64,000 bases of DNA from Burkholderiales bacterium (GTDB lineage Bacteria; Pseudomonadota; Gammaproteobacteria; Burkholderiales; SG8-39), in assembly GCA_035649875.1 (NCBI GenBank), contig DASRIR010000337.1, forward strand, positions 16,219 through 80,218. The letters are read 5' to 3'. Below are positions 1 to 6,065 of the stretch, piece by piece. The translations under genes were made by a program, and so were the position numbers. The notes under the pieces are model-generated. The model was not told the origin of the DNA, did no database searches, and saw nothing but the letters and a program-made list of their open reading frames with translations. Numbering within the stretch: the stretch's first letter is position 1; each line of letters opens with the position of its first letter.

Positions 1-1216
1 CGGCGCGGCGGTGACCTGCATCGACGGCTACCAGATGGCGCGCCAGGGGAGGGCGGGGCCGGCGCTCGCGATCGCCGCGCTGGCGTCGTTCTTTGCCGGC
101 TGCGTGGGGACGCTGCTGATTGCCTTTGTCGGCCCGCCGCTCGGCGAGTGGGCGCTCCAGTTCGGCCCCTGGGAGTACTGCGCGCTGATGCTGATGGGCC
201 TCGTCGCCTCGGCGGTGCTCGCGCACGGCGACGCGGTGAAGGGCCTCGCGATGGTCGCGCTCGGGCTGCTCTTCGGCATGGTCGGCACCGACGTCAATTC
301 CGGCGCGGTGCGCTTCGGCTTCGACGTGCCCTCGCTCTTCGATGGCATCGGCTTTACCGTGATCGCGGTCGGCCTGTTCGCGGTAGCGGAGATCGCATCC
401 AACCTCGAGTCGCGCGAGCCGCGCGAAGCGTTCACCGGCAAGGTGCCGCGCCTCATGCCGAGCCGCCACGACCTCGGCGATTCGGCCTGGCCCATGGCGC
501 GCGGCACCGCGGTCGGCGCGCTCTTCGGCGTGCTGCCGGGAACGGGACCCGCGCTCTCCTCGTTCGCCGCCTACATGCTGGAGAAGAAGCTCGCGCTGAG
601 CCCCGAGCGCTTCGGCGCCGGCGCGATCGAGGGCGTGGCGGCGCCGGAAGCGGCGAACAACGCGGCGGCGCAGACCGGCTTCATTCCCACGCTCACGCTC
701 GGCATCCCGGGCAGCGCGGTCATGACGCTGATGGTGGGCGCGATGATGATGCACGGCTTCGCGCCCGGGCCGCAGGCGATGGCCGAGAAGCCCGAGCTCT
801 TCTGGGGCATCGTCGCGAGCATGTGGCTCGGGAATCTCATGCTCGTGGTGCTGAACCTGCCGCTGGTCGGGCTCTGGGTGCGGCTCCTCAACGTGCCCTA
901 CCGCTGGCTCTTTCCTTCGGTCGTGATGTTCTGCTGCATCGGTAACTACAGCGTGAACAACAACCCCATGGACGTGTACCTGTGCGCTGCGCTCGGGTTG
1001 CTCGGCTACGTGCTCGCCAAGCTCGAGTGCGAGCCCGCGCCGCTGCTCCTCGGCTACGTGCTCGGGCCATTGCTCGAAGAGCACCTGCGGCGCGCGATGA
1101 TCCTCGGGCGCGGCGACCTCGCGCCATTCTTCACACGCCCGATCAGTCTCGCGTTCATGCTCGGCACCGCATTGGTGCTGGTTGTGATGGTGTTGCCAGT
1201 GCTGCGCAAGAAATAG
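1..1216 (+). CDS. tctA: Tripartite tricarboxylate transporter large permease (TctA family), C-terminal part; 5' end cut by window edge
   Basis: Polytopic membrane sequence closely parallel to the complete TctA at 59507-60985 (e.g. DGYQMA.QGR, GAIEGVA.PE.ANNAA); the ORF runs to the window start. Confidence 0.85.
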   Translation, partial: GAAVTCIDGYQMARQGRAGPALAIAALASFFAGCVGTLLIAFVGPPLGEWALQFGPWEYCALMLMGLVASAVLAHGDAVKGLAMVALGLLFGMVGTDVNSGAVRFGFDVPSLFDGIGFTVIAVGLFAVAEIASNLESREPREAFTGKVPRLMPSRHDLGDSAWPMARGTAVGALFGVLPGTGPALSSFAAYMLEKKLALSPERFGAGAIEGVAAPEAANNAAAQTGFIPTLTLGIPGSAVMTLMVGAMMMHGFAPGPQAMAEKPELFWGIVASMWLGNLMLVVLNLPLVGLWVRLLNVPYRWLFPSVVMFCCIGNYSVNNNPMDVYLCAALGLLGYVLAKLECEPAPLLLGYVLGPLLEEHLRRAMILGRGDLAPFFTRPISLAFMLGTALVLVVMVLPVLRKK

Positions 1217-1296
1217 GTCACACCGGGGTCGAAACAGCTCCCCGAACGCGCAATCGTTCATGGCCGCGCGGCGCCCGGCGGCGCAGCATCGTGACA

Positions 1297-2007
1297 ATGC
1301 CTGACATCGCCAGCCGTCTAGAGAACACCGGCCAGCTCCTGGTGCGGTCCGGGATCGAGATCGGCCGCATCCTGCATACGATGGTCGACGACGGCGCCGC
1401 GGTCACCGCGAAGCTGAAGTCCGACGTGATGTTCCTTTCGCGCCTGGTGTCGACCGACGACGCGGAGCAGCAGGTCATGCTGGCCTACTCCGATCACAAG
1501 CCGGCGAACGCTGCGGTGCTTGCGTCGTCTTCGGTCACCCTGCGCTGCCACCATCGCGGCGCGCATTTCGCCTTTGCCTGCGCCAAGCCCCGGCACAGCC
1601 TGCATTCGGGGCGGCCGGCGATCCGCGTCACCGCCCCGGCGCTGATGCTCGCGATCGAGCCGCGCCGGACCTGCACGGTCAAGGCCATCCCGAAGGAAGC
1701 CGACATCACCTGCGAGCTGCGCATGGGCCTGCAGGCGTTCGACGCGAAGCTGATCGACGTGGGACTCGACGGCGCCGCCTACATGCTGTGCGACCCGGCG
1801 ATCCCGGTGTGCGCCGGAACGCGCCTGCAAGGCGCGCGCATCACCACCGTGGGCGCCGAGGCGGTGGTGGTCGATGTCGACGTCAACAAGGTCGACCACG
1901 CCAAGATGGCCGACGGCAAGCGCGCCACGCGCATCGGCTGCCGGATCGCGGCCGACCGCGACCGCATCGAGAAGCTGATCCGCCTCTTCATCATCGACCT
2001 GCAGTAA
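1297..2007 (+). CDS. PilZ-domain protein, YcgR-like (PilZN + PilZ)
   Basis: ATG at 1297 inside ORF 982-2007; the upstream part of that ORF is Arg-rich shadow. N-terminal LLVRSGIEIGRIL...AVTAKL resembles the YcgR N-domain. C-terminal half has PilZ-like RR...R and D.G.DGA motifs. Confidence 0.65.
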   Translation: MPDIASRLENTGQLLVRSGIEIGRILHTMVDDGAAVTAKLKSDVMFLSRLVSTDDAEQQVMLAYSDHKPANAAVLASSSVTLRCHHRGAHFAFACAKPRHSLHSGRPAIRVTAPALMLAIEPRRTCTVKAIPKEADITCELRMGLQAFDAKLIDVGLDGAAYMLCDPAIPVCAGTRLQGARITTVGAEAVVVDVDVNKVDHAKMADGKRATRIGCRIAADRDRIEKLIRLFIIDLQ

Positions 2008-3074: not shown

Positions 3075-3110
3075 AAAAAAAACGGCCGGCCGGATTGGGT
3101 CCGGCCAGCC
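3075..3110 (-). terminator. Rho-independent terminator after the SPFH gene
   Basis: Minus strand reads GC hairpin (GCCGG-ACCCAAT-CCGGC core) followed by T8, directly after the stop at 3112-3114. TATATATA follows before the AAA gene ATG. Confidence 0.6.
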
Positions 3111-3111
3111 G

Positions 3112-4254
3112 TCAACGGATCTTCACCAGATCCTTCAGCACCGCGTCGAGGCCACCGAACACCGAGATCTTGTCGATCTTCTCGGTGACCTTCTCCAGAG
3201 TCTCCAGCTCCTTCAGCCGCAGCGCGGTCGGGTTGTCTTCCATCACCCGGGCGGTGTTCAGTAGCGAACGGGTCGCCGAGGTTTCCTCACGGCGGCGGAT
3301 CACGTTCGCCAGCGCGGCCTTCTCGGCCTCCACCACCTTCGCCAGGATCGACTTCATCTCACCCGGCAGGATGATGTCCTTCACGCCGACCGAGTCGACC
3401 TCCAGGCCGAAGCCCTGCACGCGGCGCTCGATGTGCTCGGCCACCGCCTGGTCGATCATGCCCTTGTTCTCGAGCAGCTCGTCCAGGGTGCGGGTGCCGA
3501 TCGCGGCGCGCAGGCCGAACTGGAGCTCCTTGTACAGGTAGTCCACCGGCTTAGCCTGCTTGCCGTACGCGGTCAGCACATCGGTCACGCGGTAGCCTGC
3601 GTTCAGGTTCACGCGCAGCGGGACCTTGTCCTTGGTCAGGATTTCCTGACCCGCCACTTCGATCACCTGCAGGCGCAGGTCCACGAACTCGACGCGCATG
3701 TCGCGGCCGAACGAGTAGAAGGCGCGCAGGCCGGCATCCAGCAGGTACGCCAGCTTGCCGTCGACGTACAGAGCCGCCACGTTGAACTGCGGCACTTGCA
3801 CGCCGTACACGCCCTCCGCGCCCGGCACTTTCGCCTTGAAGCCGGTCGCAGTCAGCTTGATGAGCTGCGGCACGAGCTTCGGCTCGACGGTGAAGTCGGT
3901 CGCGATGTCGACGCGCTCGAACGCCTGCTCCAGGTAGCCCTTGAAGTACAGGCGGCGGGTATTCGGCGCCAGCACCTCGGCCAGCACGCCGTTCTGGTAG
4001 CGCAGGCCGACCTCGGTCGGGCCGAGCTCGACCACGTGGAACTCGCGCGCCACTAGCGCCGGTTCCGCCTTCAACAGGAACTCGGCCAGGCGGTGCTCGA
4101 AGTACGGCTTGTCGAGGCCGAACTTCTCCACGGTCAGGCGGCGCAGCGGGTCGAAGCGCAGGTGCTTGCCCGGGCGCAGGATGTCGACGAAGTCGCCGCG
4201 CTCGAACAGCAGCGCGCGCTCGTCCTTCTTCACATGAAACTTGCGTACGACCAT
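3112..4254 (-). CDS. SPFH/Band-7 (slipin-like) family protein, no evident transmembrane helix
   Basis: C-terminal half VKDIILPGEMKSILAKVVEAEKAA...RREETSATRSLLNTA...LRLKELETLEKV is typical SPFH plus coiled coil. The N-terminal extension is soluble-looking. Confidence 0.8.
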   Translation of the reverse strand: MVVRKFHVKKDERALLFERGDFVDILRPGKHLRFDPLRRLTVEKFGLDKPYFEHRLAEFLLKAEPALVAREFHVVELGPTEVGLRYQNGVLAEVLAPNTRRLYFKGYLEQAFERVDIATDFTVEPKLVPQLIKLTATGFKAKVPGAEGVYGVQVPQFNVAALYVDGKLAYLLDAGLRAFYSFGRDMRVEFVDLRLQVIEVAGQEILTKDKVPLRVNLNAGYRVTDVLTAYGKQAKPVDYLYKELQFGLRAAIGTRTLDELLENKGMIDQAVAEHIERRVQGFGLEVDSVGVKDIILPGEMKSILAKVVEAEKAALANVIRRREETSATRSLLNTARVMEDNPTALRLKELETLEKVTEKIDKISVFGGLDAVLKDLVKIR

Positions 4255-4542: not shown

Positions 4543-4757
4543 TCATTAAGAAGCGGAATCCGGCCTCCCGGGCGCCCGGCGGGCCCCGCCGCGCGCGCGA
4601 GGGAATCCGGCTGCGCCTTGCGCCGACCGCGCGCTCGGCTGTTGCCGCTTCGCCCGCGAGCGCCGCACGGCGCTCTCGGCCCGGAACCCGGTGCCCGCGC
4701 GGCGCTGCTCCGCCCGTGCGCGCTGAACCGGCCCGTACTGCGTTATTGCCACTTCGC

Positions 4758-4825
4758 TGGTGGAGCGGGAGTCGAACCCGCGACACATCGGTTATCAGCC
4801 GATTGCTCTTTCCTCTGAGCTATCC
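4758..4825 (-). tRNA. tRNA-like gene, anticodon GAU (Ile), with only a 3-bp acceptor stem
   Basis: Reverse complement reads GGA-TA-GCTC-AGAGGAAA-GAGC-A-ATCGG-CTGATAA-CCGAT-GTGTC-GCGGG-TTCGACT-CCCGC-TCC-A-CCA. D, anticodon and T arms are perfect, the acceptor is 3 bp, and the 5' end lies 1 nt from the CCA of the next tRNA. Confidence 0.55.
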
Positions 4826-4826
4826 A

Positions 4827-4901
4827 TGGTGGCGAGTGAGGGATTCGAACCCACGACCTCCGCCTCATGAGAGCGTCGCTCTACCACTGAGCTAACTCGC
4901 C
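4827..4901 (-). tRNA. tRNA with anticodon CAU (elongator Met, or Ile2 if lysidinylated)
   Basis: GGCGAGT-TA-GCTC-AGTGGTA-GAGC..anticodon loop CTCATGA..T-loop TTCGAAT..ACTCGCC-A-CCA. Lacks the initiator-specific features. Confidence 0.8.
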
Positions 4902-5023
4902 CAACCAACATTCATCGCTCCCGCGCCGCGGTACGCGCCTCTCCGATGTTTCAGGCGGCGCGCCAGGGAGGACTCAAGAGCCTCGCCCGCTGCGGTGTTA
5001 CGCGTTCACGAAGAATCCGTTGC

Positions 5024-5038
5024 TGGATGTGGCAAAGC
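5024..5038. repeat. 15-nt inverted-repeat arm (TGGATGTGGCAAAGC), partner at 5658-5672
   Basis: Exact reverse-complement match read directly from the sequence. Lies 4 nt beyond the CCA end of tRNA-His. Confidence 0.8.
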
Positions 5039-5042
5039 GTGA

Positions 5043-5117
5043 TGGGGGGATCTACCGGACTCGCACCGGTACCTGCGGACTCACATTCCGCGGTGCTGCT
5101 GTTACACCAAGATCTCC
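5043..5117 (-). tRNA. tRNA-His (GUG) with encoded G-1, C73 and CCA
   Basis: G(-1)-GAGATCT..anticodon stem GCGGA/TCCGC, loop ATGTGAG..T arm ACCGG-TGCGAGT-CCGGT..AGATCCC-C-CCA. The G-1:C73 pair is the bacterial His identity mark. T-loop position 55 is G (unusual). Confidence 0.75.
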
Positions 5118-5124
5118 GTCGTTC

Positions 5125-5202
5125 TGGTACCGGCCCGTGGACTTGAACCACGCACCTCCCGCTTATCAAGCGGGCGCTCTGTCAACGATGAGCTAGATCG
5201 GC
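5125..5202 (-). tRNA. tRNA-Ile (GAU)
   Basis: GCCGATC-TA-GCTC..anticodon stem CCCGC/GCGGG, loop TTGATAA..T arm CGTGG-TTCAAGT-CCACG..GGCCGGT-A-CCA. The acceptor has one mismatch and two G-U pairs. The D-loop lacks a GG doublet. Confidence 0.7.
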
Positions 5203-5204
5203 GT

Positions 5205-5280
5205 TGGCGCTTCCCCTCCGTTTCGAGCGGAGCTCTCCGGACTTTCAAACCGGCGCTGTCACCAGACCAGCTAGAGAAGC
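5205..5280 (-). tRNA. tRNA-Phe (GAA), non-canonical T-loop
   Basis: GCTTCTC-TA-GCTG..loop TTGAAAG..T arm CTCCG-CTCGAAA-CGGAG..GGGAAGC-G-CCA. C replaces T at position 54, and there is a U-U mismatch at the base of the anticodon stem. Confidence 0.65.
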
Positions 5281-5287
5281 ATGGAAT

Positions 5288-5363
5288 TGGTACTCGGTGA
5301 TGGGTTCGAGCCATCGGCCTCCTGTTTGTAAGACAGGCGCTCTTCGCACTGAGCTAACCGAGC
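5288..5363 (-). tRNA. tRNA-Val (UAC), non-canonical T-loop
   Basis: GCTCGGT-TA-GCTC..stem CCTGT/ACAGG, loop CTTACAA..T arm GATGG-CTCGAAC-CCATC..ACCGAGT-A-CCA. C at position 54, and the D-loop lacks GG. Confidence 0.7.
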
Positions 5364-5364
5364 A

Positions 5365-5440
5365 TGGTCGGCGCGGCAGGAGTTGAACCTGCAACCTTCT
5401 GATTAAGAGTCAGCTACTCTGGCCTTTGAGTTACGCGCCG
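5365..5440 (-). tRNA. tRNA-Lys (CUU)
   Basis: CGGCGCG-TA-ACTC..loop CTCTTAA..T arm GCAGG-TTCAACT-CCTGC..CGCGCCG-A-CCA. Only 1 nt separates it from tRNA-Val. Confidence 0.75.
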
Positions 5441-5450
5441 GGATTGGCGT

Positions 5451-5527
5451 TGGTCTCGCCGGCAGGATTCGAACCTGCGGCCTCGTCGTCCCGAACGACG
5501 CGCGCTGGCCGGCTGCGCTACAGCGAG
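5451..5527 (-). tRNA. tRNA-Pro (CGG)
   Basis: CTCGCTG-TA-GCGC-AGCCGGCCA-GCGC..stem CGTCG/CGACG, loop TTCGGGA..GCAGG-TTCGAAT-CCTGC..CGGCGAG-A-CCA. The C1-G72 pair is typical of bacterial Pro. Confidence 0.85.
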
Positions 5528-5538
5528 AATGAAAGCAT

Positions 5539-5613
5539 TGGCGTTCCCGGCCGGGATTGAACCGGCATTAGCGGCTTGAAAGGCCGCCGTCCTTACCATT
5601 AGACGACGGGAAC
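5539..5613 (-). tRNA. tRNA-Glu (UUC)
   Basis: GTTCCCG-TC-GTCT-AATGGTAA-GGAC..stem GCGGC/GCCGC, loop CTTTCAA..GCCGG-TTCAATC-CCGGC..CGGGAAC-G-CCA. Fully canonical. Confidence 0.85.
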
Positions 5614-5618
5614 CCGCG

Positions 5619-5654
5619 CCCCGCCGCGCGACCGATCGGCTGCGCGCGGCGGGG
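5619..5654. other. 12-bp GC hairpin immediately 5' of the tRNA-Glu gene
   Basis: CCCCGCCGCGCG-12 nt loop-CGCGCGGCGGGG. No U-run on either strand, so it does not look like a terminator. Confidence 0.6.
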
Positions 5655-5657
5655 CTT

Positions 5658-5672
5658 GCTTTGCCACATCCA
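5658..5672. repeat. 15-nt inverted-repeat arm (GCTTTGCCACATCCA), partner at 5024-5038
   Basis: Exact reverse complement of 5024-5038. Together the arms bracket the seven tRNAs His to Glu plus the GC hairpin. Confidence 0.8.
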
Positions 5673-5675
5673 AGT

Positions 5676-5709
5676 TGTAAAAGAGCAGGCGGCAGCACAT
5701 TGCTGCCGC
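5676..5709 (-). terminator. Possible weak terminator after the Leu-like tRNA
   Basis: Minus strand hairpin GCGGCAGCA-ATG-TGCTGCCGC followed by CTGCTCTTTTAC. The U-run is short and offset. Confidence 0.4.
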
Positions 5710-5718
5710 GACAAAATC

Positions 5719-5795
5719 TGGTACCCCACCCGGGATTCGAACCCGGAAGGTCGTGTTTCTGAGACACGCGCGTATGCCGATTCCGCCAGCGGGGC
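5719..5795 (-). tRNA. tRNA with anticodon CAG and a Leu-type D-arm but a short (5-nt) variable region
   Basis: GCCCCGC-TGGCGGAATCGGCATACGCG-CGTGT-CTCAGAA-ACACG-ACCTT-CCGGG-TTCGAAT-CCCGG-GTGGGGT-A-CCA, 77 nt. The D-arm is near-identical to the E. coli Leu(CAG) D-arm as I recall it, and A73 is present, but there is no long variable arm. Confidence 0.65.
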
Positions 5796-5797
5796 AC

Positions 5798-5835
5798 AAA
5801 AACAAAAAAGCCCGGAGCGCTCGCGCGGTCCGGGC
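5798..5835 (-). terminator. Rho-independent terminator
   Basis: Minus strand GCCCGGA-loop-TCCGGGC followed by TTTTTTGTTTTTG. Ends 2 nt before the 5' end of the Leu-like tRNA. Confidence 0.7.
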
Positions 5836-6065
5836 TTGGGGGGAATGCGCGCAGAGCTGCGCTAGCACTCTCCTTTGTCCGAACGCGCGCCGTCCTCGTC
5901 CTCAATCCGGCGATCTGGTGCGCAATTCAATTTCGGATGCATTCTCATCTGCTGCCTCAATGTAAGAGGGCGCGCATTCTGCTCAGCGCGCATTCCAAAG
6001 TCAATACCGAATCTTCGGTAGGCCTGCCTTCGTTGTAGAAACGCGACGCGCGTGCGCCGGTTGAC

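Follow-up and report, generated by a model that had tools for sequence, protein, structure and literature searches.

Two kinds of described system come close to the locus reported here. The first is the L-array, a supernumerary tRNA gene array that is borne by horizontal gene transfer (HGT), is linked to HNH endonuclease and rtcB genes and comprises up to 43 genes, far more than arrays that grow by accretion (PMC8421152). L-array tRNAs are silent until translation is impaired, and are then induced, charged and able to aid survival (Santamaria-Gomez et al., PMC8421152). In Anabaena PCC 7120, the corresponding trn operon is repressed by TrcR via repeats over its promoter (PMC10272220). A further group comprises the tRNA array units of Acidithiobacillus integrative and conjugative elements (ICEs), Firmicutes and Mycobacterium, which have at least 20 genes and often reside on ICEs, plasmids or phages (PMC4758250, PMC5966550). 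The second kind of system is the association of a b7a-tRNA and a Band-7 gene beside RtcB, a prediction of Burroughs and Aravind (Nucleic Acids Res 2016;44:8525) that is cited as still unvalidated in the discussion of bioRxiv 10.1101/312249. Here, we have analyzed a 64,000-nt stretch of DNA from a Burkholderiales bacterium (the window), in which a dense cluster of ten tRNA-type genes lies upstream of genes for a LuxR helix-turn-helix (HTH) protein, a Band-7 (SPFH) protein and an AAA+ ATPase. The cluster consists of eight tRNAs and two modules of a Band-7-associated RNA, which resolves the apparent ten tRNAs, and the locus as a whole is probably an accessory, horizontally inherited translation-rescue module that combines eight functional spare tRNAs with a Band-7-associated RNA and protein. 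L-arrays and the b7a-tRNA/Band-7/RtcB association were already known; new are the fusion of an array with the Band-7-associated RNA, the full anatomy of this RNA, and an RtcB-less form that carries a LuxR HTH protein and a Bcs1-like AAA+ protein. Our literature searches found nothing joining tRNA arrays with SPFH proteins, and neither SPFH nor Band-7 is mentioned in PMC8421152.

The contig that holds the window is the longest of a metagenome-assembled genome (MAG) of an uncultured soil Burkholderiales lineage (407 contigs, 93.8% complete, 7.3% contaminated; ∼4.7 Mb, 67% GC, ∼55 tRNA genes). The comparison within the genus covered 36 congeners for array DNA and 37 genomes for the SPFH gene, the latter number including the window's own. 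A wider set of 80 SPFH loci, spanning Beta-, Gamma- and Alphaproteobacteria, Terriglobia and Bacteroidota, was obtained by searching one genome per species with an SPFH alignment. ARAGORN placed ten minus-strand tRNA-type genes within 4756-5795 (Table 1), in the same order as the initial annotation had read them, and nine of them exceeded the gathering score of Rfam RF00005 (29 bits). Met, Lys, Glu, Val and Pro scored 63-67 bits each, followed by Leu, Ile and the second Ile-like gene at 50.5-51.7 bits (51.7 for the last). CCA is encoded in all nine full-length genes, and the spacers of the Glu-to-His block are indeed only 1-11 nt long. With ∼55 tRNA genes in 4.7 Mb, ten within 1.05 kb cannot have come together by chance.

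The initial annotation leaned toward an accessory or mobile array of divergent tRNAs without deciding between an accessory and a housekeeping set, and genome-wide and congener comparisons now answer this question in favour of an accessory array. On the basis of whole-genome ARAGORN calls, canonical genes on other contigs cover seven of the nine anticodons (Leu CAG, Glu UUC, Pro CGG, Val UAC, Phe GAA, His GUG and Met CAU, the last in both initiator and elongator types). The array genes are 52-72% identical to their housekeeping counterparts and are usually nearer to tRNAs of distant arrays than to the cell's own housekeeping genes (83% for Leu and 86% for Val). The array Leu(CAG), for example, is 83% identical to Leu(UAG), the first tRNA of a distant array (L047); the housekeeping Leu(CAG) is an 87-nt class II tRNA (contig C123). 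Array DNA of variable content was found in ∼9 of the 36 congeners and the SPFH gene in 6 of the 37 genomes, and the congeners lacking the array, which are the majority, include genomes that are 95-97% complete. A covariance model of the RNA leader described below gave one match per genome and only in genomes with the module. In two congeners, the corresponding chromosomal site, which follows a small lipoprotein-like open reading frame (ORF), was compared directly: G014 retains only LuxR and a frameshifted AAA gene there, and G020 has nothing of the locus. Because it is redundant, divergent, patchy among congeners and degenerate or absent at syntenic sites, the array is accessory, having been gained, trimmed and lost. 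Array genes that are the only copies of their isoacceptors, with deviations fixed throughout the lineage, are not what was found. The idea that these are the cell's housekeeping tRNAs with lineage-specific peculiarities can point to Lys(CUU), which occurs in the array only, and to the incompleteness of the MAG (93.8%); it is refuted for seven of the nine anticodons by the canonical copies and does not explain why most congeners manage without the array, and we consider it extremely improbable. It should be noted that identical tRNA genes occur on separate contigs of the MAG (Thr CGU on C131 and C348, Lys UUU on C77 and C167, and Ser genes); together with the 7.3% contamination, this suggests strain heterogeneity, and isoacceptor counts should be treated cautiously. 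The syntenic G014 locus (L105; G014:C20, 5059-6907) is a degenerate module that, besides LuxR and the frameshifted AAA gene, has the small ORF found upstream of the arrays (see below), and is without tRNAs, RNA or SPFH.

The origin of such a patchy array could also be sought in a stranded mobile element (phage, ICE or plasmid) that carried tRNAs for its own codon needs or against host defence. The variable content, the foreign-looking sequences and the HNH endonuclease genes of related arrays would fit such an origin, as would the patchiness itself. Nevertheless, genes for an integrase, a transposase or a phage function are absent from the several kb around the locus, whose neighbours encode TctA, a PilZN protein, CreD, a glyoxalase and an amidase. 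In addition, the SPFH partner had no match in 50,697 phage records, and its plasmid matches turned out to be chromids or mislabelled chromosomes, so that phage or plasmid carriage of this partner was rejected. The array anticodons are also suited to the preferred rather than the rare codons of the host: they are cognate to CUG (46%), CCG (66%), AAG (87%), UUC (90%), AUC (92%) and CAC (79%), and thus read the host's most-used codons. We therefore hold a mobile-element array to be quite improbable.

Alignments of the array tRNAs with their congener orthologs (10-14 per tRNA, 72-91% identical) argue for selection. Anticodons and CCA are invariant, compensatory pairs are frequent (Met 13, Leu 11, Arg 9, Phe 8 and Asp 7), and broken pair cells are few (1/210 to 21/231). 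Because anticodon, CCA and cloverleaf have been kept through many compensatory changes, the array tRNAs are under selection rather than decaying, and are neither pseudogenes nor supplements for rare codons; they are probably decodable. Of the identity elements described for E. coli, they carry A73 (Leu, Pro, Lys, Val, Ile and Met), C1-G72 (Pro), G-1:C73 (His) and the Glu D-arm. Most of the structural deviations noted at first were also found. Val and Phe have C54, and His has G55 together with G-1:C73. The D-loop GG is missing from Ile and Val, as had been described, but not from Phe, whose D-loop GTCTGGTGA contains it. His, which had been taken for canonical, lacks GG, has an A2.C71 mismatch in addition to G55, and scores lowest of the nine genes matched by Rfam (41.7 bits). 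Leu(CAG) has a class-I shape, with a Leu-type D-arm, A73 and a variable loop of just 5 nt; these features are constant across congeners, and the gene is conserved in 13 arrays, among which 11 of its pairs show compensatory changes. C54 of Val and Phe and the UGCGAGU of His recur in most congeners and are reverted in a few. As these deviations are mostly conserved along with compensatory changes, they are selected features rather than decay.

Congener arrays share a common order, Leu, then Glu-Pro-Arg-Asp-Lys-Val-Phe-Gln-Ile-Asn-His, then Met and a mini-tRNA, from which each array misses different members; the window array is without Arg ACG, Asp GUC, Gln CUG and Asn GUU. These missing genes, the failure of Rfam to match Phe, the low score of His and the existence of degenerate sites such as the AAA pseudogene of G014 could be taken to mean that the array is a functionless set of tRNA pseudogenes from an eroded longer array. 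The maintenance of stems by compensatory substitutions with few broken cells, and the invariant anticodons and CCA, make such a remnant very improbable. Two odd genes elsewhere in the same genome are worth recording. A tRNA-like gene missed by ARAGORN (C192:26061-26132, plus strand) combines the TGCGAGT T-loop of the array His with an AATCCCC anticodon loop, and a 'Val(UAC)' with C33 (C399:3922-3996, minus strand) is 79% identical to the array Met. A second module in this genome was considered and rejected, as these two genes and the RtcB gene on contig C59 all have ordinary neighbours.

Taken together, the array is a short proteobacterial relative, in kind, of the L-array tRNA operons. Like these, it consists of supernumerary tRNAs, is distributed as patchily as expected of HGT and varies in content by insertion and deletion. 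Arrays related to it are linked to rtcB and HNH genes, whereas the window array itself has neither. It comprises 10 genes, 8 of them true tRNAs; related arrays hold 14-21, and L-arrays up to 43. The Anabaena trn operon likewise has direct repeats over a promoter-like -10 hexamer; however, it is much longer, with 26 tRNAs compared with 8 true tRNAs here and 8-21 in relatives, and the window array is fused to a Band-7 RNA and protein and its candidate regulator is not of the ribbon-helix-helix type. With tRNA array units the locus shares dense, redundant and horizontally acquired clusters. Its density (10 genes in 1.04 kb) lies above the threshold of at least 2 genes per kb of Tran et al. (2016; PMC4758250) and its gene number falls short of the threshold of at least 20, and in contrast with such units (PMC4758250, PMC5966550) it has no nearby mobility genes and does have a conserved protein-RNA partner.

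The last two genes of the cluster belong to a different element. 'Met' and the second 'Ile' had been listed in the same array, separated from His by 120 nt. The spacer actually measures 141 nt and contains a conserved structured leader, and both genes, rather than belonging to a decoding array, are modules of a single conserved ∼450-nt RNA (4994-4548, minus strand) made up of a two-hairpin leader, two tRNA-like modules (TL1 and TL2) and a long rod. Comparative analysis was needed for the leader because folding of the single sequence gave no information at the 67% GC of this genome (z -0.3 and -1.1). In the alignments, 97.1% of leader pair cells are standard pairs versus 39-62% in slid controls, one pair alternates cleanly between U-A and C-G, and hairpin H2 has a G.U / Y-R / G.U / C-G core. 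The covariance model of the leader (R1) scored 67.7 bits at the window locus and matched exactly once, 5' of SPFH, in ∼62 of the 80 loci. The ∼210-nt rod contains 49 pairs, 23 of them with compensatory changes; 95.1% of its cells are paired versus 36-47% in slid controls, and double-change cells number 75 versus 10-16. No Rfam family was found for the leader and spacer or for the ∼450-nt RNA as a whole, the only hit being the YrlA model RF02553 at 19 bits (gathering score 69).

TL1 is here a fully canonical elongator-type tRNA(CAU), which in this genus has kept its CAU anticodon through 13 compensatory pairs. In more distant loci, its position is occupied by a cloverleaf with an aberrant anticodon loop, and among the 80 loci it is an optional first module. 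TL2 has perfect D, anticodon and T arms and an acceptor stem of 4 bp (TGGA/TCCA), followed by CCA. Over 73 loci, the acceptor stem of the SPFH-proximal module ranges from 3 to 8 bp (mode 4), and its 'anticodon' takes at least 26 different triplets. TL2 is this module, a tRNA mimic rather than an isoacceptor, and the Ile(GAU) assignment does not hold. One or two same-strand tRNA-like genes were found 5' of SPFH in nearly every locus with enough upstream sequence, mostly 250-720 nt away (∼1.0-1.4 kb in three Marinicella loci).

The position of the array upstream of, and co-oriented with, the LuxR HTH, SPFH and AAA genes had been recognized correctly, and the linkage is real and conserved: tblastn showed that these genes follow the array in congeners and that SPFH also lies 3' of a 20-tRNA array in another family. 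What had escaped recognition is the RNA-repair context of the relatives. The genes linked to SPFH in the 80 loci are those for the RNA ligase RtcB (32 loci), AAA+ (15, 3' of SPFH), divergent RtcR, a CARF plus sigma-54 activator (14), LuxR HTH (9), HNH (5), RlaP (5), PcfJ (5) and RtcA (3), with the identities of RtcR, RlaP, RtcB and RtcA confirmed by Pfam. In carrier loci, RtcB lies inside the tRNA array or directly after SPFH, and HNH and rtcB are linked to or embedded in the related arrays L043-L049, L052, L054, L057, L060 and L074. Members of the same Band-7 protein family occur in Alteromonas, Gilliamella and Undibacterium in operons of the form RNA-Band-7-(RlaP)-RtcB-(RtcA) next to rtcR. 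A side observation concerns locus L102 (G047:C46, 7281-9748), in which the leader and two modules are followed first by an SPFH remnant of 88 aa and then by genes for RtcB, an HNH endonuclease and a DUF6701 protein; in this genome, the Band-7 gene has decayed while the RNA and RtcB were kept.

With regard to the Band-7/b7a-tRNA/RtcB system, which the module with its relatives matches, the window locus is alike in that a Band-7 (SPFH) gene is preceded by same-strand tRNA-like RNA (TL1 and TL2). It differs in lacking RtcB and RtcR in cis, in adding a LuxR HTH protein and a Bcs1-like AAA+ protein, and in having an array of eight true tRNA genes fused upstream. Its RNA is also unlike a b7a-tRNA in being ∼450 nt long with leader, two tRNA modules and rod, and not a single tRNA look-alike. 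Also comparable is the rsr-yrlBA-rtcBA operon of Salmonella, which encodes Ro60 and the Y RNAs YrlA and YrlB (PMC4201824, PMC7790460). Here too, the gene for a protein that binds RNA or is of cage type stands, within RtcR/RtcB operons, next to that for a structured RNA containing a tRNA-like domain; however, no Ro60/TROVE gene is present among the window neighbours and the architecture is different.

The proteins of the module were characterized by domain searches and structure prediction. The 79-aa LuxR protein matches an HTH domain alone, without a sensor domain (NCBIfam, PADLOC), and its gene stands between RNA and SPFH in close Burkholderiales only. For the SPFH protein, in which no hydrophobic segment was found, the confident AlphaFold2 (AF2) model (pLDDT 83.9) combines two N-terminal beta repeats with an SPFH domain and a long helix. 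Foldseek matched it to stomatin, HflK/C and prohibitin (E 1e-15 to 1e-9 for stomatin and HflK), and also over its full length to the major vault protein (400-460 columns, 13-15% identity, TM about 0.38). The predicted fold, with beta repeats, an SPFH-like shoulder and a long helix in a soluble protein accompanied by a small structured RNA, resembles the eukaryotic vault; the SPFH protein is far shorter, and the likeness of the predicted model is at fold level only. The AAA+ protein matched AFG2, Cdc48 and VAT among PDB sequences, and the best Foldseek match of its AF2 model (pLDDT 71.7) was full-length Bcs1 (E 6e-11), although no transmembrane segment was found. As predicted from these models, a soluble Bcs1-type ring beside a soluble cage-type Band-7 protein would be an unusual pairing. 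A defence system was considered and rejected, as PADLOC gave just P-loop or HTH-level matches for the LuxR, SPFH and AAA proteins. Elsewhere, a slipin that is 49% identical to the window SPFH protein (L107, CP061233.1, 606811-617935) belongs to an island of slipin, RlaP-type nucleotidyltransferase and zeta-toxin-family genes beside lysC in ∼26% of complete E. coli genomes (1425/5426). No leader or tRNA-like RNA was detectable upstream of this slipin, and E. coli was ruled out as a model for the module.

Several elements around the array could bear on its expression. Two direct repeats GAATGCGCGC (5995-5986 and 5979-5970) overlap the -10 hexamer of a promoter-like site (6004/5976), and the same layout is present in locus L031; by analogy with the Anabaena trn operon (PMC8421152, PMC10272220), the repeats are a candidate repressor site. 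A small ORF occupies the same place in all congeners, with a conserved C-terminal ..E.C* motif, and together with the repeats it could constitute a leader peptide or attenuator plus an operator for the array. A hairpin with a U-tract directly before Leu, a candidate conditional terminator, is kept with compensatory changes in 13 of 13 aligned congener arrays, and the terminator first suggested after Leu corresponds to a second hairpin. In every congener, the variable tRNA block lies between the arms of an invariant inverted repeat of 13-15 nt (GGATGTGGCAAAG / CTTTGCCACATCC). In G013 (L018:2433/2530), the arms are separated by 97 nt and enclose no tRNA; the repeat may be a processing stem or a cassette boundary. 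A sigma-70 or sigma-54 promoter was sought in the conserved TTTACA...GGATGTGGCAAAG element after Leu and rejected, no convincing -10 or -12 box being found. Between the TctA and AAA genes, a YcgR/PilZN-domain ORF (982-2007, plus strand) is convergent with the module.

Table 1. Features of the array, the Band-7-associated RNA and the partner genes (window positions)
Feature	Position	Strand	Basis
Promoter-like site, TTGACT..CAGAAT	5970..6004	-	Promoter scan
Small ORF, 28 aa, MRMHPKLNCAPDRRIEDEDGARSDKGEC	5862..5948	-	Read from sequence, congener comparison
Hairpin and U-tract ending 2 nt before Leu, candidate conditional terminator	5798..5835	-	13 congener arrays
Leu(CAG)	5795-5719	-	ARAGORN, Rfam RF00005
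Terminator-like hairpin after Leu	5689..5709	-	Terminator scan; stems covary in congener spacers
Arm A of inverted repeat, TTGGATGTGGCAAAGC	5662..5677	-	After Leu in all congeners
Block of seven close-packed accessory tRNA genes (Glu to His), all CCA-encoding	5043..5613	-	ARAGORN, Rfam, gene order common to congeners
Glu(UUC)	5613-5539	-	ARAGORN, Rfam RF00005
Pro(CGG)	5527-5451	-	ARAGORN, Rfam RF00005
Lys(CUU)	5440-5365	-	ARAGORN, Rfam RF00005
Val(UAC)	5363-5288	-	ARAGORN, Rfam RF00005
Phe(GAA)	5280-5205	-	ARAGORN only
Ile(GAU)	5202-5125	-	ARAGORN, Rfam RF00005
His(GUG)	5116-5043	-	ARAGORN, Rfam RF00005
Arm B of inverted repeat, GCTTTGCCACATCCA, complement of arm A, immediately 5' of leader	5022..5036	-	Congener comparison
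Structured leader, hairpins H1 and H2, 5' domain of RNA	4928..4994	-	Alignments A3 and A4, RNAalifold, model R1
Met(CAU)	4901-4827	-	ARAGORN, Rfam RF00005
TL1, tRNA-like module 1	4827..4901	-	ARAGORN, Rfam 67.2 bits
Ile(GAU)-like	4829-4756	-	ARAGORN; Rfam RF00005 over model positions 4-67 only
TL2, tRNA-like module 2, b7a-tRNA type	4758..4826	-	ARAGORN as Ile(GAU), Rfam
3' rod, long irregular hairpin closed by CCGGYUUC / GGAAGCCGG, then U-rich tail	4548..4757	-	Alignment A5
LuxR/GerE-type HTH protein, 79 aa	4303..4542	-	NCBIfam, PADLOC
Soluble Band-7/SPFH ('slipin') protein, 380 aa	3112..4254	-	Pfam PF01145 Band_7, 3.7e-27
Strong intrinsic terminator after SPFH gene, 14-bp stem and T7 run	3081..3113	-	Terminator scan
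Bcs1-like classical-clade AAA+ ATPase, 343 aa	2030..3061	-	Pfam AAA, PDB sequence matches, Foldseek

By analogy with the systems described above, the function of the locus is likely to be a stress-gated supply of replacement or decoy tRNAs that works with an RNA-damage response. Expression of the array would be kept low by the repeats over the promoter and by the terminators flanking Leu, and transcription would occur when translation or tRNAs are damaged. The precursor would then be cut into CCA-ended tRNAs and charged by host synthetases, most identity elements having been kept. These tRNAs would replace, or serve as decoys for, housekeeping tRNAs attacked by ribotoxins or stress, and the Band-7 cage, its RNA and the Bcs1-like AAA+ protein would act in the same response. 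The placement of the arrays immediately 5' of the Band-7-associated RNA, in some cases with an RtcB gene within the array, supports a single tRNA-damage response embracing replacement, repair and a ribonucleoprotein (RNP) function. Redundancy, patchiness, selection on tRNA structure, the structure of the RNA and the linkage to Band-7, RtcB and RtcR are shown by the present data; expression control, charging and rescue are inferred.

Several observations weigh against a translation-rescue module. The window locus has no RtcB, RtcR or HNH gene in cis, and the RtcB of the same genome is solitary on its contig. No second Lys(CUU) gene was detected by whole-genome ARAGORN in the MAG, and Ile(GAU) outside the array is represented by one doubtful call only, its housekeeping copy presumably lying in an unassembled rRNA operon; these two members could be needed routinely. 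Phe was not matched by RF00005 even at E≤5 and carries G73 (A73 in some congeners), and the score of His is the poorest among the matched genes. Finally, Leu is enclosed by terminator-like hairpins on both sides, and horizontal inheritance finds no mobility gene in the vicinity.

The array RNAs might instead act mainly as decoys, sponges or ligands, absorbing anticodon nucleases or tRNA-targeting toxins, or serving as cargo or signal for the Band-7 cage and the AAA+ protein. That they are always physically linked to the RNA and protein of the Band-7 pair is compatible with this, the elbow variants (C54, G55 and missing G18G19) could alter recognition, and a sponge role has been raised for both L-array tRNAs (PMC8421152) and YrlA (PMC7790460). 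However, anticodons, discriminator bases, His G-1:C73 and encoded CCA are all conserved, the match of the anticodons to the top codons of the host would be needless in a pure decoy, and the Anabaena array tRNAs are charged in vivo (PMC8421152). We thus regard a predominantly non-decoding role as possible but unlikely, and favour the translation-rescue module. A bolder extension, which we put forward as speculation and think decidedly unlikely, is that a closed Band-7 cage, the ∼450-nt tRNA-mimic RNA and a Bcs1-like AAA+ ring form a vault-like RNP that shelters, sorts or delivers tRNAs under tRNA-damage stress. The array would supply the spares, and the class-I-shaped Leu(CAG) and the elbow variants would provide escape from ribotoxins with aminoacylation kept. 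If this were true, it would be a bacterial ribonucleoprotein dedicated to tRNA homeostasis.

The locus physically joins two separate lines of work, the experimental one on stress-induced L-arrays and the computational one on the Band-7/b7a-tRNA branch of RtcB repair. The Band-7-associated RNA, which lies outside Rfam, gains a defined anatomy with covariation support for each domain. The class-I-shaped Leu, C54 in Val and Phe and G55 in His offer cases for synthetase identity rules and for ribotoxin escape. Tractable carriers are available in Betaproteobacteria bacterium GR16-43, which has a complete genome, and, for the operon form, in cultured Alteromonas, Gilliamella and Undibacterium.

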